Shown: positions 6,997 through 62,598, numbered from the stretch's first letter. The stretch: 64,000 nt of DNA from Nemertoderma westbladi (GCA_032718475.1 JAUCBJ010000064.1:34175-98174); one strand, 5' to 3'. Translations and numbers: made by a program. The notes: generated by a model not told the origin, from the sequence alone.

Positions 6997-7180
6997 CTGA
7001 AATTAGTTTGAGTAATTGATTTATTAATAATTATTAATTTTAAAATTAATAATAATCACTTATTTAATAATAATTAATATTAAAAAAAATAACCTTTATT
7101 GCTCATGCAGCAGTTAATTGTTGACAGACTTTGAATCTGTTTTATTCAATTATCTATTGGGATATATTTGAATGACTCAC

Positions 7181-9560: not shown

Positions 9561-9561
9561 G

Positions 9562-11160: not shown

Positions 11161-11296
11161 TTATCCTATTGCCAATCCATCTAGAATATTCAGCTCGTAC
11201 TTAGTATGTAGTAAGTAATCCAACTGTCAGACTGTTGTTTTGCAACAAGACCGTTTAACTAGGCCTAACTGAAACTTGAAGTTTGTCTACGGGACC

Positions 11297-11689
11297 ATGG
11301 GCGATAAGGATGCAGGAAGCTGGAAGAGGTGTGGTCCTCAAGTTCTCTCTACCCTTGAGGCAATTGAGAAAGAACTAAAATCTCTAAATCTTTCTATTGA
11401 CTCGGTGATGTCTGATACCGCACTAATTCCTTCCCTTGTTAAAGAGATTGAGGTTCTGAAACGAGTGAACGACGATCTCAAAACTGATTTAGAGGAAGCG
11501 AAAACAGCAAACGATGATCTGGATCAATACCAGCGGCGTCACAATGTATTGATACACGGTGTTCCGGAGTCGCCGGATCCGGCCACGGAGCGCGCCAGGC
11601 TCTCAGCAATCCTTACTGAGCTTGGGCTTCTAATGTCCGAAGTTGATGTATACCACCAGCTGGGTTCGCCGATCTCCACCTGACCTCGT
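11297..11689 (+). mobile_element. LINE ORF1-like fragment (coiled coil plus RRM), 5' part; target of the BEL-1 insertion
   Basis: DDLDQYQRRHNVLIHGVPE is typical of CR1/L2-type ORF1; resumes after 26205. Confidence 0.7.
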
Positions 11690-12247
11690 TGTGACGGGAT
11701 CCAGGAAGGATCCCGGTTTATCCGGTTGTTTAGTTCACGCGTCCCTGCCATGTGTATGAAAGGTAAAAGGAGTTCCTGTCGTTCGTCGTATATAATAATC
11801 GGTTGTACGGATATATAGATATAGGGTATATAGATATAGGCATATGAATAATGTTGTCGTATACGGAAGGCGGGTTACGGTAATTAAAGTCCCGGTCCTT
11901 CCCTAGCTAAACTAACTAACCTAACTAGCACCAATATGATACTGAGATAACTGAACTGATATGATTACTGCCAACTGGCTATATTGCACGGGTTGGCCTT
12001 GTTACTCTACCTGATCGATGCTTCCCCCCTCTGATTGGTTGATACCCTTGTTGGCGCCCTTTGGAGTGTTCCCGTTCACCCCAGCTATTCTCTCTCGGTT
12101 AGGGGTTTGGCCCCTGACCCTTATTGTTTGTTCCTCCTTCCCATTTTGTTGGGGTGACACGAGTTGGTGATTGCCCAACCTCGTGGCCCCCAATATTGCT
12201 TATCGGCTTAACTTTATGGGGTGTTAGCGGGATTGAATAAGCTAACA
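11690..12247 (-). repeat. BEL-1 3' LTR
   Basis: Direct repeat of 25638-26205; by eye about 3 substitutions plus a poly-C length difference. Confidence 0.95.
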
Positions 12248-12256
12248 CTCCTCCCC
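12248..12256 (-). other. BEL-1 polypurine tract
   Basis: GGGGAGGAG immediately upstream of the 3' LTR on the minus strand. Confidence 0.85.
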
Positions 12257-12958: not shown

Positions 12959-15505
12959 CTATCTGTTCCTCTGGGGATAGTTCCCCCTGGCGTCCTCTTC
13001 CCTGGGTCGTTTCTTGGTTACCACCGCTCCTCTGGGGTCCGCTTTCTGCTTTCGGACTTTCGCCGCCACCTCCCTGCTGATTCCGGTTGTTGGCTCCTTG
13101 GGCGCTGGTGTTATTAGTGCCCGATATCGCTTCGCCGGTGGCCCCTCAGAGTGGCCCTGTTGTCTCCCTCTGGTGGCGTCCCATAGGATCATTTTCATTG
13201 CTTGCGGCACGTGTTCCGCCAAGAAATCCCTAAACTCCCCTCGGTTCTGTGGCGTCCACCTGTCCAAATATCTTTGTGTGTTCATCACTCCGGCATAAGA
13301 CGCTGCCGTTGCTACCTCTTGATAGGTAAACGGTAGCCTCTGCTTTATGATTTCCATGTGAGCCTCCTGATTGATAAGGAAGAAACCCCACTTGAACTCC
13401 TGGGCCTTCATGCGCTGGCGCGTCATAGCCCCGACGTCGGCCCACTCCTCGAATCTCCTAAACTTCTTCTCGTCGTCCATCCAGTCGCACTGGCGTCTGA
13501 AGTGTCCCCGAAAGTTGCACTTTGGACATCGGTTATGCAACCGTGGACACGCCCCCATCCTGTGGCTCGGCTCTCGGCAGTAGAGACAAAAGGTTCCCTT
13601 TTGGAACCGGTACAAGCAGCTCCTTTCCTGGTGGGTCTGCATCCCACAGTAGTCGCAGCCGAGTACCAATGTCTCCCGCCCCACGTCGTCCTTCGTCCCA
13701 AGCGATCTCAGCGGTCTGTGGAGTCGCTGGTAGGCAAACTTCTCCACGTTTGTGTCTCTTTCTACATCGATCTCTCCACCCCTCTCGGGCATCGTCTCCC
13801 CGAATACTATTCGTGGTGCCGTCCCCGGTTGCTCGTCCAACCTGATAGTGCTCCCCGCGAAACCCATCGCCGGCTCCTCGTGCACCCAGGTCCGCTTGCC
13901 GGATCTGTTCCAGAAGGCCCTCGCCCCACTGGCCGTCACCACCCTACCGCCAACCCAGTCCGTGTCCGAGTGGCCTATCCTCTCGATGGGCGGCATCTCT
14001 CCGAACTCGTCGTCGTCCTCCTCCTCCTCTGGCAGTGGCTTCAACCCCGGTATCCCGATGAATCCACTATGTCCCTTCCCGCCTTGGCTCTCGCCCGTAG
14101 CTCTCCATCCCTCTAGTTCCCTTAACTTCCTTGGCGGTTGGTCGCCTTCGGCGCCCGCTGGTATGGGCATCTCTCGCAACCCCGACGTCGACTGTTTCGG
14201 TGATTCCACCATCCATCCCAGTTCTCGCCCTAGAGACTCCCCCGAACTCGCTGACAAAGTCCAATGAAGTTCGTCTAGGCCTGCCTGTTCCTCGAAGCCG
14301 TAACTCTGCATCCTGGCCTCCTCTTCCCTCTCCTCTGCTTCTATCCTCTCCCTTCTAGCGACTTCTTCCAGTCGCTTTACTTCTCGTCTATCCGTCTCTA
14401 GCTGCTCCCATCTCTGATACGGCGTATCTGTCTCCCCGTCTACCAGATGTCGGCTGTTGTAGTACACCGACTCGCCCTTCAGCCCCGGGTGGTCTACCAG
14501 ACCGTCGAAGGCAACTTTAAAGGCTCTCCTGTAGCTTAGGGGTGATCCCGATAACAGAAATGCTGCTGGTTCCCTCTCGATAACCACGGTCATGAATAAG
14601 TTAAGCAAACTTATCATCATCCAGTCCTCCTGCAGGATATATCGCTTCTGATATACCTTTATCGCTCCCCTGCGGAATTGATATACCTCTTGCTTTCCCG
14701 GTCTCGCTCCCCACTTTAGCGAGTTCGCTAGTTCTGCTCCATATTCTTCCCTGAACTTCCCCCAGTCCATCGGTTTGTGGCACATGAGCCCCAATAGCTG
14801 GCCCATTGCCACCGCCCCGCATTGGCCTGTGTTTTCGACTACCCCCAACCCATCCGGTGCCGTCATAGCCATGAAGACCTTCTGAATATCCAGGAGGTTG
14901 GTGGCGTCCGGACCGATGATTCTCTCCGCATCCTCGCGAATCGCCGATCCCACTTTCGTCGTCGACTCTTCTCTTACCAGGACTTGTACCGCTTTCGGCA
15001 ACCGGTTCAATTTCGGCCCGTCCTTCTTCCCATACGTTCCTAGATCAAATAGGAAGATGTCCCCATTTGGCGCGGCCAAATGTAGGACTATGGTCCTGGC
15101 CGACCCTGCCGATCCTCGTCTCGAACCCACCTCGTCTTCCACGGTCCCCTCGTCGTCTAGGATCATATATCCTCCCCTGTTGACGGACTCTGTGAATCTC
15201 TTCCAGTCCTTTCTCGGTGATTCCCTCGGGTACTTCGGAATCCCGACCTTCGCCTCGTCCCCTTTCACCACGTAGTGGAAGTGTTGGAAGATCGCGTTGT
15301 CCAGCGACGGCGTCCCGTAGGTCCCGACCAGCCGCTGTTCGTGCATCTCCCGGAAGTGATCCTGCAGCGCTCGTGCCACGTGACCCCTTTCCAACCTCTT
15401 GTAGTATCCTCTCGTCTTCTCTTCCGGATGCCTCTCGGTGAAATCCACCAGTATCTCCTTTCCTCCTGACTCCGCCTTTCTCTTTCTGATCAATTTGCTC
15501 GCCAT
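12959..15505 (-). CDS. BEL-1 accessory protein: DEDDy-type (WRN/EXD/Mut-7-like) 3'-5' exonuclease plus 3 CCHC zinc knuckles, 848 aa from the first ATG
   Basis: Uninterrupted ORF; ExoI ILDDEG, LHLAAPNGDIFLFDL, LPKAVQVLV...KVGSAIRED (ExoII), LLDIQ, ExoIII-like YILQED; knuckles CDYC..H..C, CLYC..H..C, CPKC..H..C. Confidence 0.8.
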   Translation of the reverse strand: MASKLIRKRKAESGGKEILVDFTERHPEEKTRGYYKRLERGHVARALQDHFREMHEQRLVGTYGTPSLDNAIFQHFHYVVKGDEAKVGIPKYPRESPRKDWKRFTESVNRGGYMILDDEGTVEDEVGSRRGSAGSARTIVLHLAAPNGDIFLFDLGTYGKKDGPKLNRLPKAVQVLVREESTTKVGSAIREDAERIIGPDATNLLDIQKVFMAMTAPDGLGVVENTGQCGAVAMGQLLGLMCHKPMDWGKFREEYGAELANSLKWGARPGKQEVYQFRRGAIKVYQKRYILQEDWMMISLLNLFMTVVIEREPAAFLLSGSPLSYRRAFKVAFDGLVDHPGLKGESVYYNSRHLVDGETDTPYQRWEQLETDRREVKRLEEVARRERIEAEEREEEARMQSYGFEEQAGLDELHWTLSASSGESLGRELGWMVESPKQSTSGLREMPIPAGAEGDQPPRKLRELEGWRATGESQGGKGHSGFIGIPGLKPLPEEEEDDDEFGEMPPIERIGHSDTDWVGGRVVTASGARAFWNRSGKRTWVHEEPAMGFAGSTIRLDEQPGTAPRIVFGETMPERGGEIDVERDTNVEKFAYQRLHRPLRSLGTKDDVGRETLVLGCDYCGMQTHQERSCLYRFQKGTFCLYCREPSHRMGACPRLHNRCPKCNFRGHFRRQCDWMDDEKKFRRFEEWADVGAMTRQRMKAQEFKWGFFLINQEAHMEIIKQRLPFTYQEVATAASYAGVMNTQRYLDRWTPQNRGEFRDFLAEHVPQAMKMILWDATRGRQQGHSEGPPAKRYRALITPAPKEPTTGISREVAAKVRKQKADPRGAVVTKKRPREEDARGNYPQRNR

Positions 15506-15984
15506 TCCGAACACTCACTCGCTCACCTGTAAGGTGGTGCCTTACCAAGGCGCAATACAGATGAGTGATGTATCTAAGATGTTCTGTACAGTCGGATAAT
15601 GGCCTATTTCTTACTTAACTGCGCCCTTTTAGCCTAAATTATTACTAATTAATTTTGAAGCTAGTAAATACACCCTAATTTCGATTTCTGTCCGGTACTT
15701 TTATTATGTTCCAGAATAACTTTCCTAGTGTTGCCATAATTTGTAACTTTCAGCCCTATTCTATTTATTTTAGTTTTAATTCTACTGTCCTACTACTTAC
15801 TATTGCCTATGGATTATTCTATTCTCTAATCCACATTCTGGCCTACTCTGTGGGCCTGTGCAGTACAGCAGTATGCGTCGTGTGGCCACACGATTTACCC
15901 AGCTGTACTCATATGCCCCCCTCTCCCTACTAACTGCTAACTAATATCTATATCCTATATACCCTTCTACCTCTTACTCTCTTT

Positions 15985-16700
15985 CTCTAACTAACGGTAC
16001 TACGTACCCTCTAACTCTCTAACTAACTAGCGGTACCACGTACCCTCTAACTCTCTAACTAACTAGCGGTACTACGTACCCTCTAACTCTCTAACTAACT
16101 AGCAGTACTACGTACCCTCTAACCCTCTAACTAACTAGCGGTACTACGTACCCTCTAACTCTCTAACTAACTAGCGGTACTACGTACCTCCTAACTCTCT
16201 AACTAACTAGTGGTACTACGTACCCTCTAACTCTCTAACTAACTAGCGGTACTACGTACCCTCTCTAACTCTCTAACTAACTAGCTGTACTACGTACCCT
16301 CTAACTCTCTAACTAACTAGCGGTACTACGTACCCTCTAACTCTCTAACTAACTAGGGGTACTACGTACCCTCTAACTCTCTAACTAACTAGCAGTACTA
16401 CGTACCCTCTAACTCTCTAACTAACTAGCGGTACTACGTACCCTCTAACTCTCTAACTAACTAGCGGTACTACGTACCCTCTAACTCTCTAACTAACTAG
16501 CGGTACTACGTACCCTCTAACTCTCTAACTAACTAGCGGTACTACATACCCTCTAACTCTCTAACTAACTAGTGGTACTACGTACCCTCTAACTCTCTAA
16601 CTAACTAGCGGTACTACGTACCTTCTAACTCTCTAACTAACTAGTGGTACTACGTACCTCCTAACTAACTGACTCTAGGTACTACGTACCTCTTAACTAA
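15985..16700. repeat. 36-bp tandem array (~19-20 units) inside BEL-1 between pol and the accessory ORF
   Basis: Unit CTAACTAGCGGTACTACGTACCCTCTAACTCTCTAA; no unique spacers. Confidence 0.95.
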
Positions 16701-16942: not shown

Positions 16943-19900
16943 TCACTCGGAGTAAGTGCTTACATCTCTCGCCAACCGCCATTGGTTGTTGATGATAGTA
17001 TCATCCGTGACGATTACGAGATCTCCCTCTCTTAACTCCCTGTTCGGCTTCCTCCACTTGCTTCTTTTATGGAGTGTGGGTAGGTATTCTTCTACCCACC
17101 TCCTCCAATACTCTGCGCTTATTGCTATAGCGACTTTCCAACTCTGGCGGGAGTGTATATCATCTGGGTCTACACCCCGCATATCGATGGTCGCTGGCCT
17201 TTCCATCAGAAAATGGCTAGGCGTCAGCACGTCTAGTGACTCAGGGTCATCATTCTCCGGATATAGCGGTCTGCTATTAATGATCCCCTCGCACTTCGCA
17301 AGCACTGTCCGTAAAACGTCCTCAGTGACCATGTGGGTGTTCATTAGCTTCGTCATTAGACGCTTTGAACTGCCCACCAGTCTCTCGACGCATCCTAGTG
17401 TATGTGGTGCATACGGCGTCCTTTTCTCCCACTTAACTTGTCGTCATCTCATGGTCGCCATGACTTCCTCCCCTTCCAAGATGTCCAAGGCCTCTGCCAT
17501 CTCATTCTCTGCGCCCACAAAGTTTGTGCCGTTGTCGCTGTATATCACTGCGATCGTCCCACCTTTGCGGTCTCTGAACCTTTCCAAGGCATTAATGAAT
17601 GCTGATGCGGTTGCATCTTGGGCGAGTTCTATCCCTACCGCCCGCGTGTTGTTACATACGAAGATGATACCGTAGCGTTTCTCCGTGTGCCGCATCACCT
17701 TGATCTTTATCGGCCCGAACATGTCCACACCGCAATGCGTAAATGGCGGGTCGTGCTGTCTTACTCTACTCGCTGGTAGTGGCGCCATCTCTTGTATGGC
17801 TCGCTCCTTCTTCGCTCGTCGGCAGGTCTGGCACTGCCCCACCACCGCTTCTACCTTCTTCCTCAACTGTTTGACCCAAAAGGTCCTCCTTATCTCTGTG
17901 AGAGTTCTGTTGGTGCCCCCGTGCAATATCGACTTGTGGGAGTCCCAGATAATCTGGTGAACTATTGGCGCTCCTGTTGGAATGATGATGGGTTTCGGTG
18001 GTATGATTATGCTGTTGTTGTATCCCACCCTAGAATTCATTACTAGAATCCCGTCGTCATTAAGTTGTGGCGACAGCGCGATCAGCTCGCTGTCCCGTCG
18101 AAGGTGTTGTTGGTTACCAACGCGTTCCACCTCGTCGCCATAGTTCTTCCGTTGTTCATAGCGGATGACTGCCTTGGCCGCTCCTTCCAGATCTATGTAT
18201 GTCTTGATCTTCTTGTCCTTGCCGACTCCCGCGAGGAAATTCCCGAAGGCTCTCCAGTACGCCACTAGTTTCTTGGTCTTATACCAACTAGAACTGTAGC
18301 TGAGGAGTTTATCCGTCGGGTTATCACACAGTTCTCGTCTTGGTTGCACGTCCCTAATCTCCCTCACCATCTGGGAGTATATCTCTTCTCCCTCTGAATC
18401 TCCTTCTTCTCCCTCTGACACTACTTCTGAGTCCGGATCCACCTTTCTCATCGGCGGCCAGGCCTCCTTATCGCTCAGAAATTGTGGCCCATGTTGCCAC
18501 AATACTTCCTTCTTCAAGAAAGTGTGGCGTACCACGCCCCTCGACAACAAGTCCGCTGGGTTCTCGTCTGTTGGGCAGTAGTGCCACCTTTCCAGTTCTG
18601 TGGTCGCCCTTATTTCGTCCACTCTATTTGCGACGAATATTGGGTATCTCGTCCTTTCGTTATGTAGCCAACCAAGCACTACCATGGAGTCCGTCCAGTA
18701 GTGTGTCTCCACTATGTTGGGAATAGTATCCACTAGGTAGGCTGTGGCTCTAACTCCTAGTCTCGCAGCTGTCAATTCTAACTTGGGAACTGATGCTGAA
18801 TCTGGCGGCGTTGACTTTGCTTTGCTAAAGGCTAGTCTGGGTTTATGAGCCCCCTCTCGTTGTACTAAATAGAGTGCCGCTCCGTACGCCTCCAACGACG
18901 CATCGGAGAACATGTGTAGGTCCAGATTCGTCATGTTCCCATCCGGGAAATACACTCGTGGCATGTTGTATGTTCCCATCTTCTCCAAGTCTCCTGTCCA
19001 CTTACTCCACTGTTTCTTGATTTCCTCTGGTACCTCTACGTCCCACTCATCCTTCAATTTGTATACTCTCTTGAGTATCTGTTTCCCCGTGACTAATAAT
19101 GGGGATGCTAGGCCTAGGGGATCGTATATCCTTGCTATGTACGATACATAGCCCCTCTTCGTGTGGATGTCTGCGCCCTCCTGGCTCAGCTGATACTTCA
19201 GTTCGTCTGTCTCTCTGTTCCACACGATTCCCAATGCCTTCTGTTGAGATTCTGTTCTCTTGTTCGCCATGTCCTGCCCTTTGGCTGTTGTGGGATTATC
19301 CATGGTCGATTCTGGCCTCTTGTCCTCTATCGCCTTGATAAATTCTTCCGAACTGGATTGGAATTTGGTCAGGTTAAAGCCGGATCCTTTTAGGATGTCG
19401 CGAACCTCGCGCCCCATGTCCAGTATCTCCTTAACCGTATTTCCAGACTCCATTCCGTCGTCTACGTAGAAGCCGCGTCAAATCATATCGACGGCCCTAC
19501 TGCTGTATCTGTCTTCCTTCCCCTTCACTGTGTCTCTCACTGCCATAGTCGTCGTAAATGAAGACGACTTGGCCCCCATGTTTTGTACTACCATCTTATA
19601 TGCCGGTATTATCGACGGTTCTTCCTCGCCGTTATACCATAAGAAGCGTTGACTGTCGCTATCTTCCTCCGTTACACGGACTTGGTTGAACATGCCTTCT
19701 ATGTCACACGTGAAGGCGTGTTTCCCATTTCTAAAACTAAGTAGGACCTCTATGCCTGAGTTGTATATGTTTGGGCCTTCTAACAGATAGTCGTTTAAGC
19801 ATTTTCCGTTGGTCTTTGCCGATGCGTCAACCACCATCCGCAGTTTACCTTTCTTTGGGTCTAAAGCCACGTGGAGTGGCAGGTAATATGTCCTGTCCGT

Positions 19901-21553
19901 GTTCGGTTCGTCGACCGGTAACTCCACGGCCCATCCTTTCTCGACGTACTTCTTAATCGTTCTGTGGATGTACTCATTCTTCTCGGGGCTCCGTTTTAGT
20001 GTTTGTTTCATCTTGCGGAGTCTCGTGAGTACCATCCCTCTATTATCGGGCAGCGGTATCTTCGGTAGTTTCCATACCATTCCTATAGTATACCGCCCCT
20101 CATCGCATGTCATCGATTCCTCCACGCTTTGTAAAGCCTGCTTGTCTTCTACCGAGGTCCCGACCCCGGTTTCTTTCAGTCCCTCGAAATCTTGTCTGAG
20201 CAGTCTTTTAAGCTGCTCCTCTGCTCCCTCATCACCCATTTCCTGCATTGTTCCCGCGAACATGCATCCTGATGTCTCCGACATCCTAAATGGTATCTTG
20301 CTCTTGATTGGGCCACTCAGCGTCCACCCGAATGGTGTTAATATCGCCACCGGGTCACACTGCTTGTCTTCGCCGAAGACCGTTTTCATTCTTTCGTGGG
20401 CCGTTGGGCAGTCCATTCCCACTATGATGGATACCTTCCTAACGTCCACACTTGGGATTGAGAAGTCAATGTCGTCCAGGAATTTATATTGCTCGACCTC
20501 GATGTTGGTTGGCCGCCTGGCATTGATATTAATTGACTCTATCACTTGGATGGGGTCGATGGTTGCCCCGTAGTCGCACCCCGGTGCCACAGCTGCAATT
20601 GCGCACCGTCCTGTTCTCATCTCCAGGATCTCATCTTTGCTAGAGATGGTTGTTACCGCCATTCTGCTTGGCCTCGTTCTCAATCCTATCTCTTCGGCCA
20701 CCCATTCCTCGACTAATGTGAAGGCAGCTCCACTGTCAACCAGCATTAGTGTTGTTACTGATCGATTGCCTTCCCCAATCACTCGCACGGGTACTACTCC
20801 AAGTAGCACCGTTCCTCTCTTCTTCGCCCCTTCTGTGCTCGTTGCCATCGTTTGGCCTCTCCTTTGACCGAACTTTACCGGCTTCTCCTTGTATTCCCTA
20901 GCTCTATGTCCACTCATCACACACCGTGAGCAGATTTTATTGCTCAACGCATAATCTATCTGATCTTGCCTAGATAGCGCCTGCCAGTACCTGCAGTTCA
21001 TGGTTTGATGAAGCGCATTTGCGTGTAGCTGGCATTTGCTCTTTGGGTCGTAGCCCTCCTTATACAGCGCATTGCGTATCGCAGCTGCGTTTGTTCCAAA
21101 GTCCCTACTATTCTTATTGTTTGCATTCGGCCTACTGGACGTACTGGGGTTATATTTATTCGTGTTGTTATTGTTCCCCTGTCCATTCCATGGTGTGGTC
21201 TTACCTTCGGCTACCTGTGGACTTGCAGTCCCCTGCGTCGCTGCGTATGGCAGCGATTGCCTTAGCTTTGGTAATGCGTTTGATGTATTATGCTCTGGTT
21301 TCGGTCTATGGTAATCCGTCTTTGGTCCCTTTCCCAGGCTATCTTCGCTATAGACTGGGTCGGTTATTAGTTCTGCTTCGTAGTTTAGGAAGTTTGACAT
21401 TTCTTCTAAACCCGGTTCCGCACCCTTTCTATCTCGAGTGGTGAAGGCGATTTTCCTCCACTTGTTGCGCAGCCGGATCGGTAGTGCCTGCACTATCGTG
21501 GTGATGTTATTGGACGCGTTGAGCTCGTATGGCGCGTCTAGCGTCTTTAGCAC
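16943..21553 (-). pseudogene. BEL-1 gag C-terminus and pol (aspartic protease, RT, RNase H, integrase), disrupted
   Basis: LVDSGA protease; CDIEGMFNQV and FYVDD RT (in-frame TGA at 19478); FSDAS...AYGA, YWTDS, NPAD RNase H; H..H..CQTC, GVDMFGP, SDNGTNF integrase; frameshift near 17445. Confidence 0.92.
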
Positions 21554-21813
21554 GATTAGCGCCTTTTCGACTTTGTTAGCAAATGTCTTAATGCTAACCC
21601 GATGTTATGCCTCTCAGTGTTTGCCTGATGATCTTGGCCGGGTGCCCGTATTCCCTGTCCAGTGCCCGCCATGCTGTCGTGAAGCCGCCCTCTATGCCTT
21701 GATATTGCCTCACGATATCGTATGCTGGGCCTCCCATGTATACTTGGAGATATTTTAGGCACTCCGCCTGCGTTAAGTTCTTTGTTAGTATTTCGTTACT
21801 GTACATACGCCGA

Positions 21814-21941
21814 GCACCAGTTAAATAACTGGGAGCAAAACTTGGGATAGGAGTAGCGCCCACCCCTACCCTCGGGTAGCAGCTATCGAAAGAGGAGCCT
21901 TCGGTTCGCCTCCGGCCTCGGCCGACTGTTTGCTTTTTGCT
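21814..21941. mobile_element. 128-bp structured insertion in BEL-1 gag with a 12-bp TSD
   Basis: TACATACGCCGA at 21802-21813 and 21942-21953; removing the insert plus one copy restores QFRRMYSNEIL. Confidence 0.85.
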
Positions 21942-23317
21942 TACATACGCCGAAACTGTAGATATTCTTCCGGCCTACTCCCATCGAATTTGAATGGTTC
22001 CACGGGCGGTAATTCGATCCTCGTTTTCAACGCATCGATTAACGTGGCCATCCCCATCGCCTGCGCTTCCAATGGGTTCGATGGGTGTTGTATGGTTTCT
22101 CCCGTCTGGTGCTGTCGGTCCGTCCTATTTCCTGATTTCCTTTGACTTGGGTATGTCATTGGGGGTAGCGGCCCCCTCCATATTTCTGTGTCACACGACC
22201 TATTTTCATCCAAGGGACTCGCTGTCCTTGCTCCTATCGGGGTATATTGTTGATATTGTGATGGGGGAATGTCACCCTGTCCCCCCCCACCAGTATGTTT
22301 GGTACTGGGGTTGATGTTAATATATTGGGGCCCATGCATCTATCCGCAATAATTCCCCCCTCCCCTGGGTATATGTTATATCCTTTGGTGCTGTAGTCAT
22401 ACTGCTGCACTGGTACCGGTATAGGCCTATCCGCTTCTGGCCTACCTACCGGAATGTATTCCGCGACTTCCGGGTTTAATCCCGTCGTCCGCGCTATCCT
22501 ATCGCCTACATTGCCTCTGTCAGCATGGCCTATGGTATGTGCAGTAAGGCCTACAGTATGTCCTACAGTCTGTATGTGTTGCTCGGGATCGAAGTTTATT
22601 CTTCTCGAATAATCCTCCCCGCGGCTACCGTATTCTCGATCGGCAGGCATATCCCGTCGGAAAGTTTCTCTTCGACCCCCTCTACTGCTCTCATCTTCGT
22701 GCCGGTACATCATGTACCCCTCTCTCGACGCTTAGTGCGCCTCGTCGGGTCGCGTCTCTCCGGGGCGACGGCAATCTCCCGTAGTTCGACTCCAGCGACT
22801 CTCTCCTTCCATCTCAACTACCGACGGCTCACTATCCGTCCTCGCTCTTCTATCGTTTGCGGCGATACTTCTCCTACCGTCTTCTCTTCTTCTTCTATCA
22901 GTGCAGTATTCCCGCTCGTGAGATCTCTCGTCGACCTCCCGGTTAAACTCCACTGTTCTTATTCCCTCTTCTGATCGGGCTCGACGCTCCGTCCGCCCTC
23001 TCGCGACGTCAACCTGCCTCTCTCTGCTCGATCGCACGCCACTGGGGATACTCGCGATCCCCCTATTACTCTCCGTCGCCGGGTGTTGCGGTTTACCTAC
23101 TTCGGCCCGCGCATTATCCGTTGACGCCTGCGGGGCACTCTCTGCCCCCCCCCCCCCCTTTCGCCGCTAACTTGCTGTTGTGGGGTTCCTGTAATCCCCC
23201 CCCCATTCGCCACATCTAACTTCGCTATCTCTCGCTCCGCTGCTATATCCCTCTCTAGTCGACACATCAACCCTACAGCGGCTGGGTCCATTCACCCCCG
23301 CCCCTCCCTCTGCTATT

Positions 23318-23492
23318 GTGTGGCCTACCAGGCCCTCTACTCCCTGCCTACCAACTACGTGGCCTACCAGGCCCTCTACTCCCTGCCTACCAACTACGTG
23401 GCCTACCAGGCCCTCTACTCCCTGCCTACCAGCTACGTGGCCTACCAGGCCCTCTACTCCCTGCCTACCAGCTACGTGGCCTGCCAGGCCCT
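23318..23492. repeat. 39-bp tandem repeat (~4.5 units) in BEL-1 gag
   Basis: Unit GTGGCCTACCAGGCCCTCTACTCCCTGCCTACCAACTAC, encoding GLVGHVVGRQGVE on the minus strand. Confidence 0.9.
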
Positions 23493-25628
23493 CTTCGGGT
23501 TGGCTCAACCCCGCCACCTCCGGCCTACTAACTATACGGCCCACCAGGCCCTCACCTGCTGGGTTGTACTGTACACGCCCGACGTGTTCACGTTAATAGC
23601 ACCCATATTGGAAACGGGATTACTCTGTTCGTTCAAAGTAAAATCATTTGAATTATCTTGCGCAACTACACTATCTGAATTATTTTGTAGATTCGGGCTT
23701 GGATCATTATTTAAATTATTTGGATTATTTTGCGTAATTGCATTACTTAAATTATTTTGTAAGTTCGAATCCGGGTTATTATTTTGATTATTTTGATTAT
23801 TTTATGTAACTACATTAATATTAGAATTATTTTCTACATTAATATTAGGATTGTTCTGATTTAAATTTAAATTACTACCACTAGGCAAAGTATTTCCTGC
23901 AATAAAGGTTTGATTAGGATTATCCAATATGGTACTATTAATATTAACCACGTCTACTGTACCATTATTATTACCCCCCCCCCCCCCCCCCCCCCCGCCC
24001 GTAAGGTCACACCAGTTTCGTGTCTGTCGTGCGGTCCCTGTGAGTGGAGTATTAATAAACGTATCAACAGCCCTCGGCTCCTCGAAAATATTCGAGCCTG
24101 CCCCGCTCTCAGATGCCCCTACCCGCGCCAGTCCCACCTCGCGCGTGTGTACAGCTTCATACTCTACGAGTTTGTCTCGCTGTTTCTCCAATTCTTTTCG
24201 CTCACGCTCCACTCTTGCTATTTTATCCATAGCCTCCCGTTCGCTCTGCTCGGCCAATTCCATCTCTCTCCTAATCCCCTCCCTTCGCCTCGCCTCACGC
24301 TCTCTGCGTTCACTTCCCTCCCTCGCCTCACGTTTCTCGCGTTCCGCCTCACGTTCCTTTCGTTCACTTTCCCACTTCGCCTCACGTTTCTCGCGTTCCG
24401 CCTCACGTTCCTTTCGTTCACTTTTCTCTCTCGCCACACGCTCCTCTTGTTCCTTCAACTCTATTTCATCATACTCCCTAAGGCTCCTCACGGCCCTTTC
24501 GGCCCTCTCTCTTGTCTCTCTAATCGACACCATTTCCCTCTCTAGCAGCACTCTCCCCTCCTCTAGCCGTCTACCTACTTCTCTATTACCTTGCACTGCT
24601 AGATTGAGACGGTACCTAGCGTCTATCTCTCTCACCCGTATTTCTTTCGTGGAGGATGTAGCAGACTTATCGGTTGTGACGGATTCCCTCCGCCTTCCCG
24701 ATCTACTAACTTTCCCCCTCCTCCCGGAACTCCCTCCAACCGACGAGACCGAATCCGCAGGGTCAACCTCGGATTCGCCCTCCTCAGGTCTGTTCCAACC
24801 CACTAATTTTATACCCCGGGCATCGATTAAGTATGGTCCTATGTACACTACACTAGGTTGTATACCCCCGTGCCGCCATGAGTCATACAGTTCCTCAGCA
24901 ACCCTTGTCGCTCTCTCCTCGGCCAATTCTCTCTGCCCGAAGCGCATTAGATAATATAGATGTCTGTCCGACTTACCTAGTCCTGACTTTAGTTTTACCT
25001 CGTCTATCGTTTTCCCCTTTCTGGCCTCCTCTAGTAGTCTCCGGGTCGCGTTGTAGGCCCGTCGAAGTTGATCGGAGACCCCGACGTCCTCGTCGCCGAC
25101 CCCTCCTCCGTCTCTCCTGGTTCGACGTCGTACCGGCGGCCCCACCGTCGCCGTTCCGGTGGGCCGTCCGTCGCCCTCGGCCTGTGCCTGGCCGGCGACA
25201 TCGGTATTGACATCTCCGTCGTCTCTCCGGGTCCGGCGTCGTACCGTCGGCCCCACCGTCACCGTCACGGTGGGCCGTTTGTCGCTCTCGGCCTGTGGCT
25301 GGCCCGCGACATCGGCACGTCGACCCTCGTTCCGTGTCGACTCGTCTCTTTCTCCCTCGAGCTCTTTCTCTCTATCCTCCGACTCGACTCCCCCTCCTCT
25401 CGACTCGGCTTCTGACTCCAGACGGTCCCCCTCATCTTGAACTTCCGGGTCACCCATTACCGATGGCTCCGGCGTCGTGGGCCTATACCGCCTGGTCGCG
25501 GCCTCGCGGATCGTTTGTTCTTCGTCCGGGGTCCGCGTCGGTGTTGTCTCTCCCGACTGACTCATCTCTCTTCTGTAGATTGGTGGTTGGTGGTTGCTGA
25601 GTTTAGCTAGCTAGGGCGGCAGCTCTGA

Positions 25629-25637
25629 TTTAATTAC
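25629..25637 (-). other. BEL-1 primer-binding position, non-tRNA type, complementary to its own LTR
   Basis: Minus-strand GTAATTAAA abuts the 5' LTR; the minus-strand LTR contains TTTAATTAC (25828-25836; 11880-11888). Confidence 0.65.
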
Positions 25638-26205
25638 TGTGACGGGATCCAGGAAGGATCCCGGTTTATCCGGTTGTTTAGTTCACGCGTCCCCGCCGTG
25701 TGTATGAAAGGTAAAAGGAGTTCCTGTCGTTCGTCGTATATAATAATCGGTTGTACGGATATATAGATATAGGGTATATAGATATAGGCATATGAATAAT
25801 GTTGTCGTATACGGAAGGCGGGTTACGGTAATTAAAGTCCCGGTCCTTCCCTAGCTAAACTAACTAACCTAACTAGCACCAATAAGATACTGAGATAACT
25901 GAACTGATATGATTACTGCCAACTGGCTATATTGCACGGGTTGGCCTTGTTACTCTACCTGATCGATGCTTCCCCCCCCCCCCCCCCTCTGATTGGTTGA
26001 TACCCTTGTTGGCGCCCTTTGGAGTGTTCCCGTTCACCCCAGCTATTCTCTCTCGGTTAGGGGTTTGGCCCCTGACCCTTATTGTTTGTTCCTCCTTCCC
26101 ATTTTGTTGGGGTGACACGAGTTGGTGATTGCCCAACCTCGTGGCCCCCAATATTGCTTATCGGCTTAACTTTATGGGGTGTTAGCGGGATTGAATAAGC
26201 TAACA
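25638..26205 (-). repeat. BEL-1 5' LTR
   Basis: Direct repeat of 11690-12247, upstream of gag. Confidence 0.95.
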
Positions 26206-47186: not shown

Positions 47187-48351
47187 TGTTCGCGCTTTCA
47201 GACCTTTAGCAGTTTAACCTGCCAAATTGGGATGTCTTTTAGATGATAGATAGTCTTTAGCCTATGACAAGTATTTGATACACTACATTAGCCGAAGCCA
47301 GTTTATGCGCGATCATTCACCCGCTGGATACACCCGGGAGACTGGATTCGGAAGCCTAACCGTATTGCGGGGTAGGCCTACTGTATTATTCGACTGATCG
47401 TAATATATAATCTCTGACAAATTTTATTCACTTTCGGGAAATATTAACAGTTCCTTTAGGACGTGGCGCTCTAAATATGTAAACAGAGTTATGACTTAAA
47501 CTAAAAACAACGGGATGGCTATAGATTCACGTATATGGCGCATTCTTTAGGAGATGCTTTGTTATCAGTCACAATCATACACAATACTGCACAATGCTGC
47601 AAACCGATCTGCCGACCTTCACTAATTTTAGTCACATATAAAGAGAACAACAGACAATACATGTAGGGCCTATAAAATAGCATTAGATTCACTTCAAACC
47701 ACTTAATGTAAGTCGCAATCGTTATATGTAACCAGTCTCTCTAACCTTTAGTATATCAAGACTATTGGGGTGTCTGATTATTTATCAGTATTCCAAATAT
47801 AATATTCCATCAACAAATATAATGAATAACCGACAGTAAAAGCAGTAAAATGTTAAGGTATAAATTGATATGATCGATTTGGTTAGTATGATTAGTTAAG
47901 TGAGATAACAGATATACGTTCTATAATTAAGCCTACTAATGTTGAGCTAAAGACTGAAACACGGAGGTTCCAAAGCCGGTGTTCTTAGGCTGTGGACAAA
48001 ATCACACACTGACTCAACTCCACGAGTTTCTATATACAATCTCTAACACAGAGGCAAAAAACGCTCTGATTGGTCGACCGAACAAAGAAGGAACAGAGAA
48101 CAAAGAAAAGCTACACGTGTACAGCATCAGCTGTTAGCCGTCGTCATGGTAGCTACACTGTTTCAAGAGGATCCAGCGTATTGCGTCATAGAATTGCTAA
48201 TTATGTCCGCTAAAGTACACATACAGAAGAAATGACTTTTATGTCCTCTAAAACACCAGTACAGTAAGGACACGGCCTTTTATGCCTGTTAAACCAACTA
48301 CAGAGTACTTTACCGGGAAAATAACCGGCTAATTCCGCAAAAGTCTTTACA
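47187..48351 (-). repeat. BEL-2 3' LTR (~1165 bp)
   Basis: TG...CA; first 479 bp match 62120-62598 with about 5 differences by eye; both ends confirmed by the solo LTR; minus-strand TATA-like (~48033) and TCAGT (48008-48012). Confidence 0.9.
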
Positions 48352-48429: not shown

Positions 48430-50625
48430 TTAGTCTTTCTTACGCGGACGGCGTTTACGCAGTTTTTTGAGGCTAGCAAGAGTCCTTTTCTCTTTGGGGC
48501 GAGCCACTTTACTAGGAGGGCTGTAACTCCTGGGTGAAGGGTGCAATACAATTGCATCAGAAGGTTTAGGATTACGATCGGTATATCCGCCGGTCGAGGT
48601 ACCTGGTTGATCGATATCAACTTCAGTGGAGCGAGGTCTAACGGCCTTTAGGGCGCGTCTTAGGACAGCAGCTCCTACGGGTCCTTGACGGGTCGCCTGG
48701 ACAATGGCGGTAGGCGGACCGTGAGTGGTGAGAAACTTCCTTGGTTTAATGGTTCTTTCCAGCTCGCGTTCTCGGGCTCGATATTCGTAGGGCCGTCGAG
48801 ATACTTCCTGTAACTCAGGGTGCGAGTTGATAAATAAATCGCCATACTCAGGGTCTTGACGGATGTAATTGATCAAATGGTATGAAGTAATATCGTTAGG
48901 ATTGACGTTCCTAAGATATTTTCGAACAAATTTGGTGGAAATACACTCACCAACACGCTTCATTAGTTCGTAACTCGGTGTGCGTGTTTTTTGTTCCACA
49001 GACGCGAATAAATAAGGATGGAACGCGTAAACTCCCTCATAAGAGCGTCCAGGGTAGTAGCGATGGCGGGACTCACAATGTAAATCCGCGTTCGCTTCCC
49101 AAGCTCGGATGTAGCGCAGGGTAATCATCTCATCTACGCTTTCTAAATCGTGGTTAAAGGGGCAATTATAACTGGCATGTCCTTTAAGTTGACAGTGGTG
49201 GCATTGGGTCATAAATTGGGGGCAGACTGCAAAAATATGCGAGTTATTAAGTCTGCAATACGCACAATAGATTTCGATCATCGGTTGTTCGTGGAAATAG
49301 GAGCAGGGTACGTCGGAGTCCATAGGGGTGAAATGGTCTCTCGATGCGCATAATCGACAACGTTTTCGAGAAACATAGTTGGCGTGTCGATAATCGTATG
49401 CGGTGAGACATTGTGGACCTTGATACCACTCCAAGACGTAATCGTTATCGCTGCTCCGGGGCGCTGTAGGCTGGATCGCTTCAGATTCTAAGCATATTGG
49501 TTCGTCTTCCAATTGCATAGCTGAGGTAGGTGCGGCTGTCTCCGCAAGCGGACCCACTGTCTGAACTTCCACGACAGAATAACCTGTGGGTATTCGGGGT
49601 CTTTGTATAACAGATGAATGTAAGTTCTGTATACAAACGTCCTGAAAGAGGGCAAATCCCGCGCTGTTTAGCTTCTCCGCAGCTGAGTCTCTTAGGCTGA
49701 GTTTGGTCAGAGCGCGGTCCTTGAACTGACTATCAACGTTACGGAACGGAGTCAGAAAGCGCCTGAAACATTCGAAGCGGATGAATTTATTGTGTTCATC
49801 TAACTTGGCGAGTTTGGTTCCAAGTATTAAGGGATGGGCGCGTATGGTACGACTGCACACATCGGCTAGCCAACCGGCAAGTGCTGCGTTTTCAAAGATC
49901 GTGTATATAGCTAAGGAGGGACGAAGTGGAACACTCATAAAGCTATACACGACGCCAGGTGCGGTCAATGGTCCATCAAAGTATAAATGAGAATAATGAT
50001 CTCCATATACTTGTTGGTAATTTATAGGATTTCCAACCTTGAAATTCCATCCGTATTCTTGAAAGGCAAGATGTCCGATGGAGGTTCGTTGTACTTTAGT
50101 AATGCCGATGGGTGTATTTGCATACATAGTGCGGAAGAAACCTCGGCCTTCTGCCCAGGGAGCAATCAGCTGAGTATCAACGAAGGGGTATGGAATGTTC
50201 TCCATATTCCGGAAGTCGTTTTGTAGGTCTCCATAAACAGCTGAGCCGATTTTAAGGATTCTTTCGTTAAACAACATCTCGAGCACGGGCTGGGGTAACA
50301 TCGATCCATCGATACCCATGGCCGGTTTGCGCTCGGTGTCAGCGACATAACGCTGCGCGAGCTCGAATTGTCCATGTCGGAGTCTCTTTTGTGTCTCAGT
50401 AAGAGTTTCAAAAGAATAATCAATCACATCGGAACACGCTCGAGTAAATACGTGGGTAGAACCAGCGAGTCCTCGTATGTGTATCATCCGCGTAGTTCCC
50501 AGTTCTCCAACCGGAATGCTACCTTCATTGTCGTAGGTGACAACTCCATACATCTCGATAACGTTGAGAGTCTCATTCCACTCTTTAGTGGCGTTTTCGA
50601 GGGTCATTCCCACAGGATGCCACAA
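48430..50625 (-). CDS. BEL-2 accessory protein, C-terminal part: DEDDy-type exonuclease plus 3 CCHC-type knuckles
   Basis: VTYDNEG; LPQPVLEMLFNERILKIGSAVYGD; FVDTQ; YTIFE; CRLC..H..C, CAYC..H..C, CHHC..H..C; collinear with 12959-15505. Confidence 0.8.
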   Translation of the reverse strand: MWHPVGMTLENATKEWNETLNVIEMYGVVTYDNEGSIPVGELGTTRMIHIRGLAGSTHVFTRACSDVIDYSFETLTETQKRLRHGQFELAQRYVADTERKPAMGIDGSMLPQPVLEMLFNERILKIGSAVYGDLQNDFRNMENIPYPFVDTQLIAPWAEGRGFFRTMYANTPIGITKVQRTSIGHLAFQEYGWNFKVGNPINYQQVYGDHYSHLYFDGPLTAPGVVYSFMSVPLRPSLAIYTIFENAALAGWLADVCSRTIRAHPLILGTKLAKLDEHNKFIRFECFRRFLTPFRNVDSQFKDRALTKLSLRDSAAEKLNSAGFALFQDVCIQNLHSSVIQRPRIPTGYSVVEVQTVGPLAETAAPTSAMQLEDEPICLESEAIQPTAPRSSDNDYVLEWYQGPQCLTAYDYRHANYVSRKRCRLCASRDHFTPMDSDVPCSYFHEQPMIEIYCAYCRLNNSHIFAVCPQFMTQCHHCQLKGHASYNCPFNHDLESVDEMITLRYIRAWEANADLHCESRHRYYPGRSYEGVYAFHPYLFASVEQKTRTPSYELMKRVGECISTKFVRKYLRNVNPNDITSYHLINYIRQDPEYGDLFINSHPELQEVSRRPYEYRARERELERTIKPRKFLTTHGPPTAIVQATRQGPVGAAVLRRALKAVRPRSTEVDIDQPGTSTGGYTDRNPKPSDAIVLHPSPRSYSPPSKVARPKEKRTLASLKKLRKRRPRKKD

Positions 50626-50644
50626 GGTAGCGCATTCGCTAGCA

Positions 50645-52625
50645 TTAGGTAGGTAGATACTTTAAATATTGTGTGGTATATGTTTCCACATCTCCATATC
50701 GTTGTATTCTTTCTTCCTCGAATAACACGTCAAGATTCCAGTGTAATAAACGAGTTTTGATGAATCCATCAAGATTATACGGAGGTATTGTTTCTTTCTC
50801 TATTCTGGAAACATTGTATGGTTTTCGAAATGAGTTTATTTTAACTAACTGATCCAGATGTTTATGCAGTTGTTCGAGTTCGACAAGATCGAGAGGATTT
50901 ATGAGTGGCAGAAACCTCAGACTATGTGTAGGATCTTCCGGTTTTACCATGTAATATTGTGTTAGGTTGACGTAATAAGGGTGATCTTTGATCCCATAAA
51001 ACGAGTCCGGTAAAGGTCTAGCACATATGTTTACATCGTGTACCATGCGACGGACAAGATCCGCTCTATTGTCCGGAGGTTCAACGAGTATACCATCGAC
51101 ACGAGCGGCTTCGATGGGCGGACGTTGCAACATGGGAGCGTCAGCGATAAGATCTTGAGATCTTAGGTTGATATCAACCGGTTGGGGTTGTACCGTCGCA
51201 AAGAGTTTGTCTCCAAAATGGGGAACCATCGAGGGATGAAGGATGGTTTTAGAGTAGAGATCCGTCATAAGGATTTGAGCTTCGGGTTGAGCTAAAGCTG
51301 CTTCTTCTCTCTCACCCATTTCTATATGTCTCTCCTCGAGCTGATTTTCCTCCGCTTGTTGTTGTAGACGCTCATCTAGGAACTCTTGTAAAGAGTAGGT
51401 TCGTCCACGTTCGATGTCCTCCTCGAGATTTTGTATTTCTCTATCGAACTGGGGTAAAGCTAATTCCTTCACCGCTTGGACTTGTTGCAATTTACGTTTC
51501 TCCAAACTATCGTAAGTTCCCTTTCCGATTTTCTGCCGAATAGCGTCTAACGCGTTTCGTACGACGCTCTCTTCGACTTCCGTAACGGGTTGTATCGAGG
51601 TGAAGCCGGGACGGTTGTGTGGGTTAAACGGCGATATTAGATGACCGCGTCCCAATCCAGCTAGGTAGGGTTGGCGAATATCTAGTGAGCCTACTACCAG
51701 AGTGCCACCGATCAACTGTTCGGGTAACACTAGATCTTTGAACAGCGAATACAGTTCGGGAGGATCCGTGATACTATTAGGATCAAGAGTCTGAGGTCTA
51801 ACTGAGGAATGAGGAGGTCTGACCGAGTATTCCGGAACTCTGATCATTGGTTTGTTCAAGGATCGTTTGAGTCGAGCGACTGTAGGGGATACGTCGAACA
51901 GGTTTCGCTCGAAACTCCCATAAGTATATCGTGTAAAACTGTGTTTAGCGCAACGTCTCCGCGGATGTTTATGTCTTTCCGTTTGCTGATTGGGTCTAGG
52001 GCACTCGTCGCAGTAATACCAAAGACGCACGTCCTGCAGGGGAAACGCGGGTGATCGTTCTCCAGCTTTACAATATTCCTCCATCTGTTCGAAGCTATCT
52101 GGGACGACAGGTAGCGGTCGATCGGCGGTAAGATACATCATAGTGAAATAGAGTCGTTTGAGTTCTATCATAGGGTCATGATGTATACCTTGAGGATATC
52201 AAGTTTCGAGATTTTGTTGACTGGCAATATTGAGGTATGTCTCTCTCAGGAATTCCAGATAATCGTTGAAGTCGCTGCGTTTATCCGGCTCTTCAACGTC
52301 TTCCCTTTCGAGTCTGTTTCTAATATTTAAATAAAACCATTTCCCTTTCGGTGTCTACGTCGTCCGTATCGTGTAAATCGATAGGATGGCCAGTAGTTAA
52401 GAAGTCCATATACGTACCATTACGATGCGTATAGCGAGCGGTGAACTTTCTATAATCCAATTCACGCGTAAGTTGCTCCTGGGACATTGGCGGTTCGATA
52501 TAACGACCATCATCCTCCGTAGTAGTTGGACCAGCGTCGCCGCGTATCAAGCTATCGACAAATGCTTGTAAAGGTAGAGTATATCGCTCCCTGATACCAA
52601 GATCATCTTCTATCAACTCAGTCAT
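50645..52625 (-). pseudogene. BEL-2 accessory protein, N-terminal extension of unknown function (ORFs 52320-52625 and 50645-52171)
   Basis: Joins the exonuclease ORF after correcting a 1-bp indel (~52322), one TGA (~52200) and a 4-bp ACCT duplication (~50648); has a CDEC...H...C..H motif and a coiled coil. Confidence 0.65.
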
Positions 52626-54459: not shown

Positions 54460-55830
54460 TCACACCAAACCGTCATCCGAGATGTGAGTCTCGATGATAC
54501 GACCTGTCTGCCACCGCTTAAGTGGAAGATCTACATCCACAATAAGAACCATGTCTCCAGCGCTGACGTTTTCTTGCTGCGCAAACCACTTAGTTCGAAG
54601 TTGTAGCGTGGGCAGATAATGTTTTTCGAAATGGTCAGCGAAACGACGGGATAACAACTGCATGAGTTGCCAAGTTTGCCGGCAGTATTCGTCTCCGTCT
54701 GTGATTTCCGATTGTGGGAGCATGGCTACAGGTTTCTTCAGTAGGAGGAAGTGCGCATGTGTTAGCGCTTCCAGGGAATCGGGACTCGATGAGACTGGCA
54801 TAAGCGGTCTCTCGTTGAGATAGGCGGCGATTTCCTCCATTAACGTCCGCAAAAGTTCGTCGGTGAGATACGTGCGGCAAGGCACTATAAAGTGAAATGC
54901 TGTCTTCACACTTCTTATTAATCTCTCCCAACTTCCTCCCCACCAAGGGGCATCGGCGGCGTTGAAGGTCCAGCTAGACGCTGTTACTCGTAGCTGATCG
55001 TCCACCTGTCTTTGGTTCCAATCTTTGACGTAAGCTTTGATTTCATTGTTGGCACCAATGAAGTTTGTTCCCTTATCAGATCTCATCGTGTTACTAGTGC
55101 CAAAGCGAGCGATCTGTCGTCGTAAGCTTAATAGAAAGCTGTTGGTAGATAAATCGTTCACCATATCGAGATGGATAGCTCTACAAGTCATACAAACAAA
55201 GATGACACACCATCTCTTGACTATAGTCCTAGCATGATATACTTCAATAGGGCCAAATAAATCTACACCGGTATTAGTAAAGGGTGGTTCATAGAAGCTT
55301 ACTCGTTCCCTAGGTAATTCTGCCTCTCTCTGTGTTAAAGGCCTACTGAATGCTTTCCTACAGGGTATGCAGTTCCTAAGAACTTGGTTCAGAGCTCTAC
55401 GGGGTTTATAAAAATAATAGCGAGTTCGAATTTCGCTAAGAACTCGTTCTCTACCAGCATGATAAAGTTTGCTGTGAACATCTACAATCATCTTGACTTG
55501 TATCTCAAGATTTCTAATGAGTATGGGAAACTTAGTGACAAAGGATAATGGAGCATTCGTTAATCTTCCTCCAACACGTATCAACCCATCTATCATTGTG
55601 CTAGAGAAACGATCCCTTAAGTGCATCTGCGGATTTCTCAACAACAGGAAATACTTATCGGAATCCTCATAGCATTGCAGGAGTCTCAGCATCTGCTTGT
55701 TGGTTTCTTCATGCTCCTGATAACTGATCTTCTCCTTCAGAAACCTGTCGGATATCTTATATTTGGGAAGATCTTTAATAACATGGACCTGCACCGATGT
55801 TATTGGAGCGGTATCAAACGGGTCTTCCTA
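54460..55830 (-). CDS. BEL-2 integrase
   Basis: GLIRVGGRL, H..LYH..CIPC, TGVDLFGP, SDKGTNF, APWWGGSWERL, YLPTLQLRTKW. Confidence 0.92.
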
Positions 55831-58724: not shown

Positions 58725-58849
58725 GTTGATTTGTACAGTTGAATGCCTACTGCTATATTACAGTTTAAGCAAGTCTAGTAATTCAGTATCACTGTTAGCC
58801 TAGTAATTAATTACCGATACTGCTACTCAGTGTAGCGTGATATATATAT

Positions 58850-62107: not shown

Positions 62108-62119
62108 TATATCTGTTAT
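62108..62119 (-). other. BEL-2 primer-binding position, non-tRNA type, complementary to its own LTR
   Basis: Minus-strand ATAACAGATATA abuts the 5' LTR; the minus-strand LTR contains TATATCTGTTAT (47905-47916). Confidence 0.7.
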
Positions 62120-62598
62120 TGTTCGCGCTTTCAGACCTTTAGCAGTTTAACCTGCCAAATTGGGATGTCTTTTAGATGATAGATAGTCTTTAGCCTATGA
62201 CAAGTATTTGATACACTACATTAGCCGAAGCCAGTCTATGTGCGATCATTCACCCGCTGGATATACCCGGGAGACTGGATTCGGAAGCCTAACCGTATTG
62301 CGGGGTAGGCCTACTGTATTATTCGACTGATCGTAATATATAATCTCTGACAAATATTATTCACTTTCGGGAAATATTAACAGTTCCTTTAGGACGTGGC
62401 GCTCTAAATATGTAAACAGAGTTATGACTTAAACTAAAAACAACGGGATGGCTATAGATTCACGTATATGGCGCATTCTTTAGGAGATGCTTTGTTATCA
62501 GTCACAATCATACACAATACTGCACAATGCTGCACACCGATCTGCCGACCTTCACTAATTTTAGTCACATATAAAGAGAACAACAGACAATACATGTA
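62120..62598 (-). repeat. BEL-2 5' LTR, inner part only
   Basis: Matches 47187-47665, then breaks at TA. Confidence 0.92.

Follow-up and report, generated by a model that had tools for sequence, protein, structure and literature searches.

The third gene of a BEL/Pao element

The window analysed here, a stretch of 64,000 nucleotides (nt) of Nemertoderma westbladi DNA (GCA_032718475.1 JAUCBJ010000064.1:34175-98174; positions counted from its first letter), contains on its minus strand a BEL/Pao long terminal repeat (LTR) retrotransposon of 14.5 kb, E1 (26205-11690), and downstream of the pol region of this element lies the open reading frame that is the subject of this study, ORF3. It extends from ATG to stop over 848 amino acids (aa) on the minus strand (12959..15505), in sense to E1 and between integrase and the polypurine tract (PPT), as claimed in a first-pass annotation of this DNA; shuffling the region 2000 times gave no open stretch longer than 269 aa. 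Based on the family, structure and linkage data described below, ORF3 almost certainly represents a third gene belonging to an old lineage of BEL/Pao elements and combining a predicted exonuclease domain of the EXD2/WRN/Nibbler type with a triple zinc-knuckle module.

E1 is bounded by LTRs of the TG...CA type measuring 568 nt at the 5' end (25638..26205) and 558 nt at the 3' end (11690..12247), which are identical at 555 of 558 aligned positions, and by a 5-bp target duplication with one mismatch (11685-11689 and 26206-26210). The insertion interrupts ORF1 of a long interspersed nuclear element (LINE), whose frame resumes on the other side. In the gag-pol region (16943..25610, minus strand), Pfam recognised protease, reverse transcriptase (RT), the RNase H of PF05380 (E 1e-40), integrase and DUF5641, and the presence of PF05380, integrase and DUF5641 in pol assigns E1 to BEL/Pao; the order protease-RT-RNase H-integrase, the LTR termini, the PPT (12248..12256, minus strand) and the target duplication all agree with this class. 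Since about nine breaks (stops and frameshifts) interrupt gag-pol, this young copy is non-autonomous, and part of these breaks may be assembly errors. Pol is followed by a 1.4-kb spacer, ORF3, about 700 nt of untranslated DNA, the PPT and the 3' LTR. The spacer holds a 36-bp tandem array of 18.8 copies (15987..16666, strand unassigned), and directly 5' of the ORF3 start codon stands TACAG/GTGAG (15520-15535, minus strand), an acceptor-like and then a donor-like site, which might serve a subgenomic RNA.

From its N-terminus, ORF3 consists of the exonuclease domain, an acidic helix, a disordered linker, the knuckle and helical module and a basic tail. The triple zinc knuckle noticed in the first-pass annotation is present as three exact, canonical CX2CX4HX4C motifs (aa 617-630, 640-653 and 660-673; 13487..13657, minus strand). 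A helical extension follows up to about aa 782 (13160..13486, minus strand), the first part of which is conserved in the family as FE..A..G..T..R....WGF. Structure prediction from the family alignment resolved knuckles and helices with confidence as one module (about aa 612-782), connected to the nuclease domain by the disordered linker, while a fold of the single ORF3 sequence, with a predicted local distance difference test (pLDDT) score of 32.6, was discarded. Judged by hydropathy, and not by SignalP or TMHMM, the N-terminus is not hydrophobic (maximum 11-residue Kyte-Doolittle value 0.19) and no segment of membrane length is present (maximum 19-residue value 1.35, inside the nuclease fold). 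This bears out the earlier statement that ORF3 carries neither signal peptide nor transmembrane segment and hence is not env; an env or fusion glycoprotein was rejected on the same grounds and on the fold matches in PDB and viral libraries, which are nucleases.

Exonuclease fold and active site

Pfam detected no significant family in E1 ORF3 or its parts, so that recognition through DNA_pol_A_exo1, as suggested at first pass, failed for the single sequence and the assignment needs a family profile. Likewise, a single-sequence search of the PDB returned weak knuckle matches only, and among 35 homologues submitted to Pfam, P0017 alone came near PF01612 (E 6e-5, 23.3 bits vs. a cut-off of 23.6). 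A profile of 38 family members found EXD2 as best match (E 1.6e-12), followed by WRN, Egalitarian and mut-7/Nibbler; an exonuclease-only profile again recovered EXD2 (E 3.5e-12), with the ExoI and ExoII residues of ORF3 aligned to those of EXD2.

The predicted structure places a DnaQ-like fold at aa ~61-349 (14459..15325, minus strand), with pLDDT mostly at 70-93 and low-confidence loops. This model matched Nibbler (Z 14.1, root-mean-square deviation 3.3, 203 aligned residues) and WRN (Z 13.1, root-mean-square deviation 3.2, 179 aligned residues), matches within 1 Z being taken as tied, and further apPol, RRP6 and RNase D. Foldseek reported 59 matches in the PDB at E<=0.001, and all those among the matches listed were of DEDD type, with a trypanosome RNase D at the top and EXD1 and Egalitarian also included. 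In the ESM Atlas, the N-terminal part of ORF3 scored 0.94-0.95 against eukaryotic clusters without names and against a cluster of PF01612 (34% of members), a lead consistent with the fold assignment, and the C-terminal module remained below 0.9. Family profile and predicted structure thus uphold the likeness to WRN, EXD2 and Mut-7/Nibbler that had been proposed from motif spacing. A prediction lacking a DnaQ-like fold, one of two outcomes by which the first-pass annotation would have been refuted, did not result.

The description of the active site as an intact DEDDy site was overstated. In the columns of a 68-member alignment (70% non-redundant), D117 (15157), E119 (15151), D192 (14932) and Y289 (14641) are in place, and the ExoIII Asp column holds a glutamate, E293 (14629). 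Over the whole alignment, this column contains Asp in 33 members and Glu in 20. Sixty-four members cover all five columns; 25 of these read DEDD and six DEDE, 18 have lost ExoI at both residues, and the other 15 have partial sites. The DEDE set comprises E1 ORF3, the ORF3 of a second element in the window, E2, and four database proteins, and this recurrence in six members marks the glutamate as a lineage trait and not as decay of the E1 copy. A contig about 4% diverged from E1 ORF3 is unchanged at Glu293. Going by its site residues, any nuclease activity of E1 ORF3 would be weak or altered.

Family spread and inheritance with pol

An exhaustive protein search retrieved 79 homologues at E<=0.001, mostly via the knuckle region, 37 of them at least 470 aa long. 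A DNA motif of the knuckle region located 120 loci in metagenome contigs, out of about 300 estimated, and 118 of the 120 match the family knuckle profile; the same motif gave no match in viral contigs, and a search for related loci by means of one protein gave no result. The first-pass annotation had named a one-off host capture, absent from other copies, as the finding that would speak against its proposal; capture in one copy is ruled out by the 79 proteins, the homologue in E2 and the 118 loci. Long flanks were taken for 80 loci, 78 of which are family members. A sense gag-pol lies upstream in 30 of the 32 loci with at least 2.5 kb of upstream sequence, and all eight pols submitted to Pfam contain PF05380 and DUF5641. 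Where the sequence reaches at least 1.5 kb beyond the motif on its upstream side (58 loci), the nuclease domain is present in 56 and missing from two. Most loci stem from eight assemblies whose accession prefixes are adjacent, and are therefore not independent; their nuclease domains form 27 groups at 50% identity, however, and other loci come from differently named records. As variations in architecture, the BEL ORF3s at L047:3341-6529 and L059:6880-9648 have kept the knuckle module and have no exonuclease domain, and the homologue P0003 carries the triple-knuckle module in two copies.

Trees of integrase and nuclease domain, calculated for 22 elements, have supported groups in common. A clade of nine ExoI-less elements appears in both (support 100/100 and 94/99), as does the pair of E1 and E2, which sit on long branches, so their pairing may be false. 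The trees, unrooted and without cellular outgroups, fit one old acquisition with subsequent inheritance together with pol.

ORF3 is under purifying selection. The 40 scored differences comprise 26 at third codon positions, 24 synonymous and 16 non-synonymous changes, no stop and no gap. The resulting ratio of non-synonymous to synonymous substitution rates (dN/dS) of about 0.17 (binomial p 2e-7) is a rough value, as it derives from three short, low-depth contigs of one public run with one further difference left unscored. One could still regard ORF3 as a passenger, i.e., a captured host gene drifting without function in one element, and the missing Pfam match, the altered site and the 10-25% identity between members would suit such an origin. 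Selection and distribution already contradict this explanation: the open 848-codon frame, the low dN/dS, the invariant knuckle cysteines, the fixed place behind BEL pol and the concordant trees leave it next to no probability.

Mean identity within the family amounts to 33% in the knuckles vs. 19% in the nuclease domain, a difference that is partly built in, as the family was gathered via the knuckle motif. All 18 ExoI-less members have kept the knuckle module. Loss of ExoI in these 18 of 64 members, with frame and knuckles retained, implies that catalysis is not the invariant job of the family, and from this pattern of conservation RNA binding looks like its core role. The same counts bear on a DNA-side function, in which ORF3 would proofread for the RT or trim complementary DNA (cDNA) 3' overhangs before integration in the manner of WRN-type or polymerase exonucleases. 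WRN and A-family polymerase exonucleases are indeed among the fold matches and EXD2 is the best profile match; a needed DNA step would, however, not tolerate the loss of ExoI in 18 of 64 members and of the whole domain in two of 58 loci, and three CCHC knuckles usually indicate RNA binding. We therefore consider a DNA-side role improbable.

In 11 of 37 relatives, ORF3 is in frame after the pol stop codon, which in nine of the 11 is TGA-C. These junctions lie, with the element on the plus strand, at L007:1233, L021:2626, L029:6876, L031:6683, L034:705, L065:6735, L066:6470, L068:5644, L069:6537, L076:1308 and L080:3425, and two of the TGA-C junctions read TGA-CAATTA. Both TGA-C and TGA-CAATTA are contexts resembling known stop read-through signals. 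Judging from these contexts, a Pol-ORF3 fusion by stop suppression is possible, mainly in the ExoI-less clade.

The second element of the window and the primer sites

E2, likewise a BEL/Pao element on the minus strand (47187-62598), carries its ORF3 in the same position as E1. The reading frame (48430..50661) is a 743-aa open block with the site D-E-D-Y-E and three knuckles, and its nuclease domain is 16% identical to that of E1. A 517-aa block (52198-50645) overlaps the start of E2 ORF3; it has no relative among the fetched sequences, and the two may be one gene broken near 50650, as their arrangement suggests. The 3' LTR (47187..48351) measures 1165 nt, a full length deduced from the PPT and an older solo LTR, and of the 5' LTR the 3' part remains (62120..62598). 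Matches to gag (DUF1759) and integrase (DUF5641) were obtained at 54460..58757, and none to protease, RT or RNase H between them. The leader region of E2 contains a near-perfect palindrome of about 1.05 kb (60049-61102, 94% self-complementary). The solo LTR just mentioned, an older member of the E2 family (~40600-41754, plus strand; 864 identities, 239 mismatches), sits inside an apparent Gypsy integrase fragment and preserves the primer-complementary segment described below at 11 of 12 positions.

As for the remainder of the window, broken and duplicated LINE copies with a CR1/L2-like RT surround both elements (1-11700, 33600-36800 and 45154-47217), a GC-rich 30-bp tandem array (42915-44427) runs through 50 copies and is open in several phases, and Rfam and transfer RNA (tRNA) scans of the window gave no match.

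Neither E1 nor E2 has a tRNA-type TGG site after the 5' LTR. Instead, perfect complementarity to the element's own LTR begins at the first base past the 5' LTR, over 9 nt in E1 (25629..25637, complementary to 25828..25836 and to its counterpart in the 3' LTR, 11880-11888) and over 12 nt in E2 (62108..62119, complementary to 47905-47916 in the 3' LTR), all on the minus strand. Resampled LTRs reached the same complementarity in 117 of 20000 cases for E1 and 11 of 20000 for E2, internal anchors in 26 of 13305 and 0 of 13683, respectively, and ten relatives with tRNA sites show leader-LTR complementarity of only 5-7 nt. Wider leader-LTR pairing beyond the 9- and 12-nt cores is marginal or absent (7/200 and 23/200 shuffles), and the 9-bp helix of E1 lies outside the minimum-energy fold (-76.1 vs. 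-80.9 kcal/mol). TCAGT motifs, which we take to be initiator-like, are found about 57-95 nt upstream of the complementary segments; given this distance, the segments may not be the RNA 5' end, unlike in Tf1.

All 24 relatives with a visible leader possess tRNA-type sites, as defined by motifs that we assume to represent such primer sites; seven other regions show no visible site, mostly with the leader outside the contig, and L022 is unclear. Self-priming was consequently rejected as the family-wide reason for ORF3, and primer maturation in this sense, a role put forward at first pass without mention of the self-complementary sites, cannot be the general one. Within the sub-lineage of E1 and E2, ORF3 might still mature a self-primer: the 3' R (repeat) region would pair with the primer site, and ORF3 would trim the RNA up to the duplex, providing the 3'-OH for minus-strand synthesis. 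The missing tRNA-type sites and the LTR complementarity above controls speak for this scenario. Set against it are the tRNA-type sites of the 24 relatives with the same gene, the altered DEDE site shared by both self-complementary elements, the energy of the E1 helix, which exceeds that of the minimum-energy fold by 4.8 kcal/mol, and the marginal wider pairing; moreover, cleavage by RNase H, the route of Tf1, would be enough for self-priming. We hence regard primer maturation by ORF3 as unlikely, and still a little more doubtful is the stronger proposal that a BEL/Pao sub-lineage has swapped tRNA priming for pairing with its own R and uses ORF3 as a dedicated primer-making enzyme. As a separate observation, the untranslated region after ORF3 of L060 (6703-7284) contains, upstream of the PPT, a 14-nt complement of a tRNA-type primer-site motif, and L033 is similar.

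Proposed role of ORF3

Among the functions considered, we tentatively prefer that ORF3 is an RNA-binding accessory factor acting on the element's own RNA, to which we give a chance somewhat short of even. The knuckle module would hold single-stranded RNA and the nuclease fold would engage the RNA 3' end, trimming it wherever a lineage retains the complete DEDD site and merely holding or shielding it where the site was lost, resulting in a genomic RNA end suited to packaging and reverse transcription. We favour the element's own RNA as target for two reasons: the gene is inherited together with pol, and it stands in frame behind the pol stop in the relatives described above, where read-through would carry ORF3 into particles.

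Several points weigh against this role. In E1, ORF3 is not a Pol fusion, since it lies 1.4 kb off pol. D294, adjacent to E293 and not conserved in the family, could in principle replace the fourth acid, and both the roughness of the dN/dS estimate and the recruitment of the family by its knuckles affect the evidence for selection and for RNA binding. In addition, Nibbler, EXD1 and Egalitarian act on host small RNAs or messenger RNA (mRNA) cargo, and these structural neighbours fit rival readings equally well.

They fit, in particular, a role in counter-silencing, in which ORF3 binds, over-trims or sequesters the PIWI-interacting or small interfering RNA guides of the host, or mimics Nibbler, EXD1 or Mut-7. 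Nibbler EXO domains are the best structural matches, with EXD1 and Egalitarian also among them; as a gene of its own, ORF3 could work in trans, dead-nuclease members suit a decoy, and ORF3 is intact beside the broken gag-pol, though the probability of this by chance alone is about 0.1. On the other hand, Z values separate the DEDDy families only slightly and EXD2 ranks first by sequence profile, while co-inheritance with pol and the in-frame junctions point to the replication cycle. Counter-silencing is thus a possible but rather unlikely function, and we lean towards action on the element's own RNA.

Whichever role applies, the sequences described here suggest that in a large and old BEL lineage the third gene encodes a nuclease-fold protein, likely RNA-binding and not env-like. 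As DEDD, DEDE, dead-site and domain-less versions occur naturally, the question already posed by the rotifer ORF3s discussed below, namely which use a retrotransposon makes of a DEDDy nuclease, becomes testable by comparison. If ORF3 did act on small RNAs, it would represent an element-encoded silencing suppressor; if it did make a self-primer, this would constitute a new priming route.

Comparison with known systems

An exonuclease-like segment has reportedly been noted once in nematode BEL elements, although this is uncertain. The words "exonuclease" and "nuclease" are absent from the main text of three BEL/Pao surveys, whose supplements could annotate such ORFs (PMC3118150, PMC6238403, PMC554778), and the accessible parts of two further papers contain nothing on ORF3 (PMC3985635, PMC11662393). 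Overall, the literature search found no DEDD-type ORF3 and no self-priming for BEL/Pao, with the spelling "BEL/Pao" partly unmatched and Repbase and GyDB outside its scope. The Belpaoviridae profile describes an env-like third gene only, tRNA priming and a size range of 4.2-10 kb (PMC8742986). E1 and E2 share with Belpaoviridae/Semotivirus the LTRs, the gag-pol domain order, the PPT and the presence of a third gene, found there in some members; they differ from the profile in the non-env nature of this gene, the 14.5 kb of E1 and the lack of a tRNA-type site in both.

Elements of the Tf1/sushi group, Tj1 and some plant lineages have been described as self-priming (PMC4600332, PMC6317226, PMC5443660). 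As in Tf1, Tf2 and Tj1, the primer site of E1 and E2 adjoins the 5' LTR and shows complementarity to an LTR segment of the same element (PMC4600332, PMC6317226). Unlike E1 and E2, which are BEL/Pao, these elements belong to Ty3/gypsy and use the mRNA 5' end, and some plant copia elements are predicted to self-prime.

The closest precedent among retroelements comes from bdelloid rotifers, where the LTR elements Juno and Vesta as well as Athena/Terminon elements carry DEDDy ORF3s whose activity is undemonstrated in the consulted sections of that work (Rodriguez, Kenefick, Arkhipova 2017, PMC5408684), as restated for Juno, Vesta and Terminons in accessible parts of later papers (PMC5718144, PMC6431247); the same sections call DEDDy nucleases previously unreported in retrotransposons (PMC5408684). 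Like the ORF3s of Juno and Vesta, the protein described here is non-env, encoded downstream of pol, contains a DnaQ-like DEDDy domain and has no transmembrane segment, and an altered motif, DEED, occurs in rotifer ORF3s too (PMC5408684, in the sections consulted). In contrast to Juno and Vesta, the carrier is BEL/Pao (PF05380, DUF5641), and the exonuclease domain shares one protein with three CCHC knuckles and a helical module that is conserved; in the main text of the rotifer paper, in the portion consulted, knuckles are assigned to gag and pol alone, and two ORF3s are noted to have a Cys-His-Cys motif (PMC5408684). A further difference, with the rotifer ORFs compared by description only, is that the present family has been passed on together with pol across long distances and contains a clade of dead nucleases. 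A non-env DEDDy ORF3 was hence already known; the BEL/Pao carrier, the triple-knuckle module and the natural series of active-looking and dead forms are new here, extending to BEL/Pao a type of cargo that we found described only in rotifer retroelements.

Among cellular proteins, ORF3 resembles EXD2, WRN, Nibbler/Mut-7, EXD1 and Egalitarian in fold and motif spacing (ExoI DxE, ExoII K.G...D, ExoIII Y-x3-D/E), at about 13-19% identity in structural alignments and with Glu in place of the ExoIII Asp. To our knowledge, none of these proteins has a triple-knuckle module. Egalitarian and EXD1 illustrate that dead domains of this kind can serve RNA binding. In architecture, ORF3 is like Trypanosoma brucei RNase D (PDB 7c42-7c4c, solved with RNA), the top Foldseek match (E 7e-6), which is matched by both halves of the family profile and in which CCHC knuckles likewise follow a DEDDy domain. 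That enzyme differs in being cellular and about 350 aa long and in having its knuckles beside the nuclease, whereas those of ORF3 come after a 260-aa linker, and the likeness between the two architectures is probably convergent.

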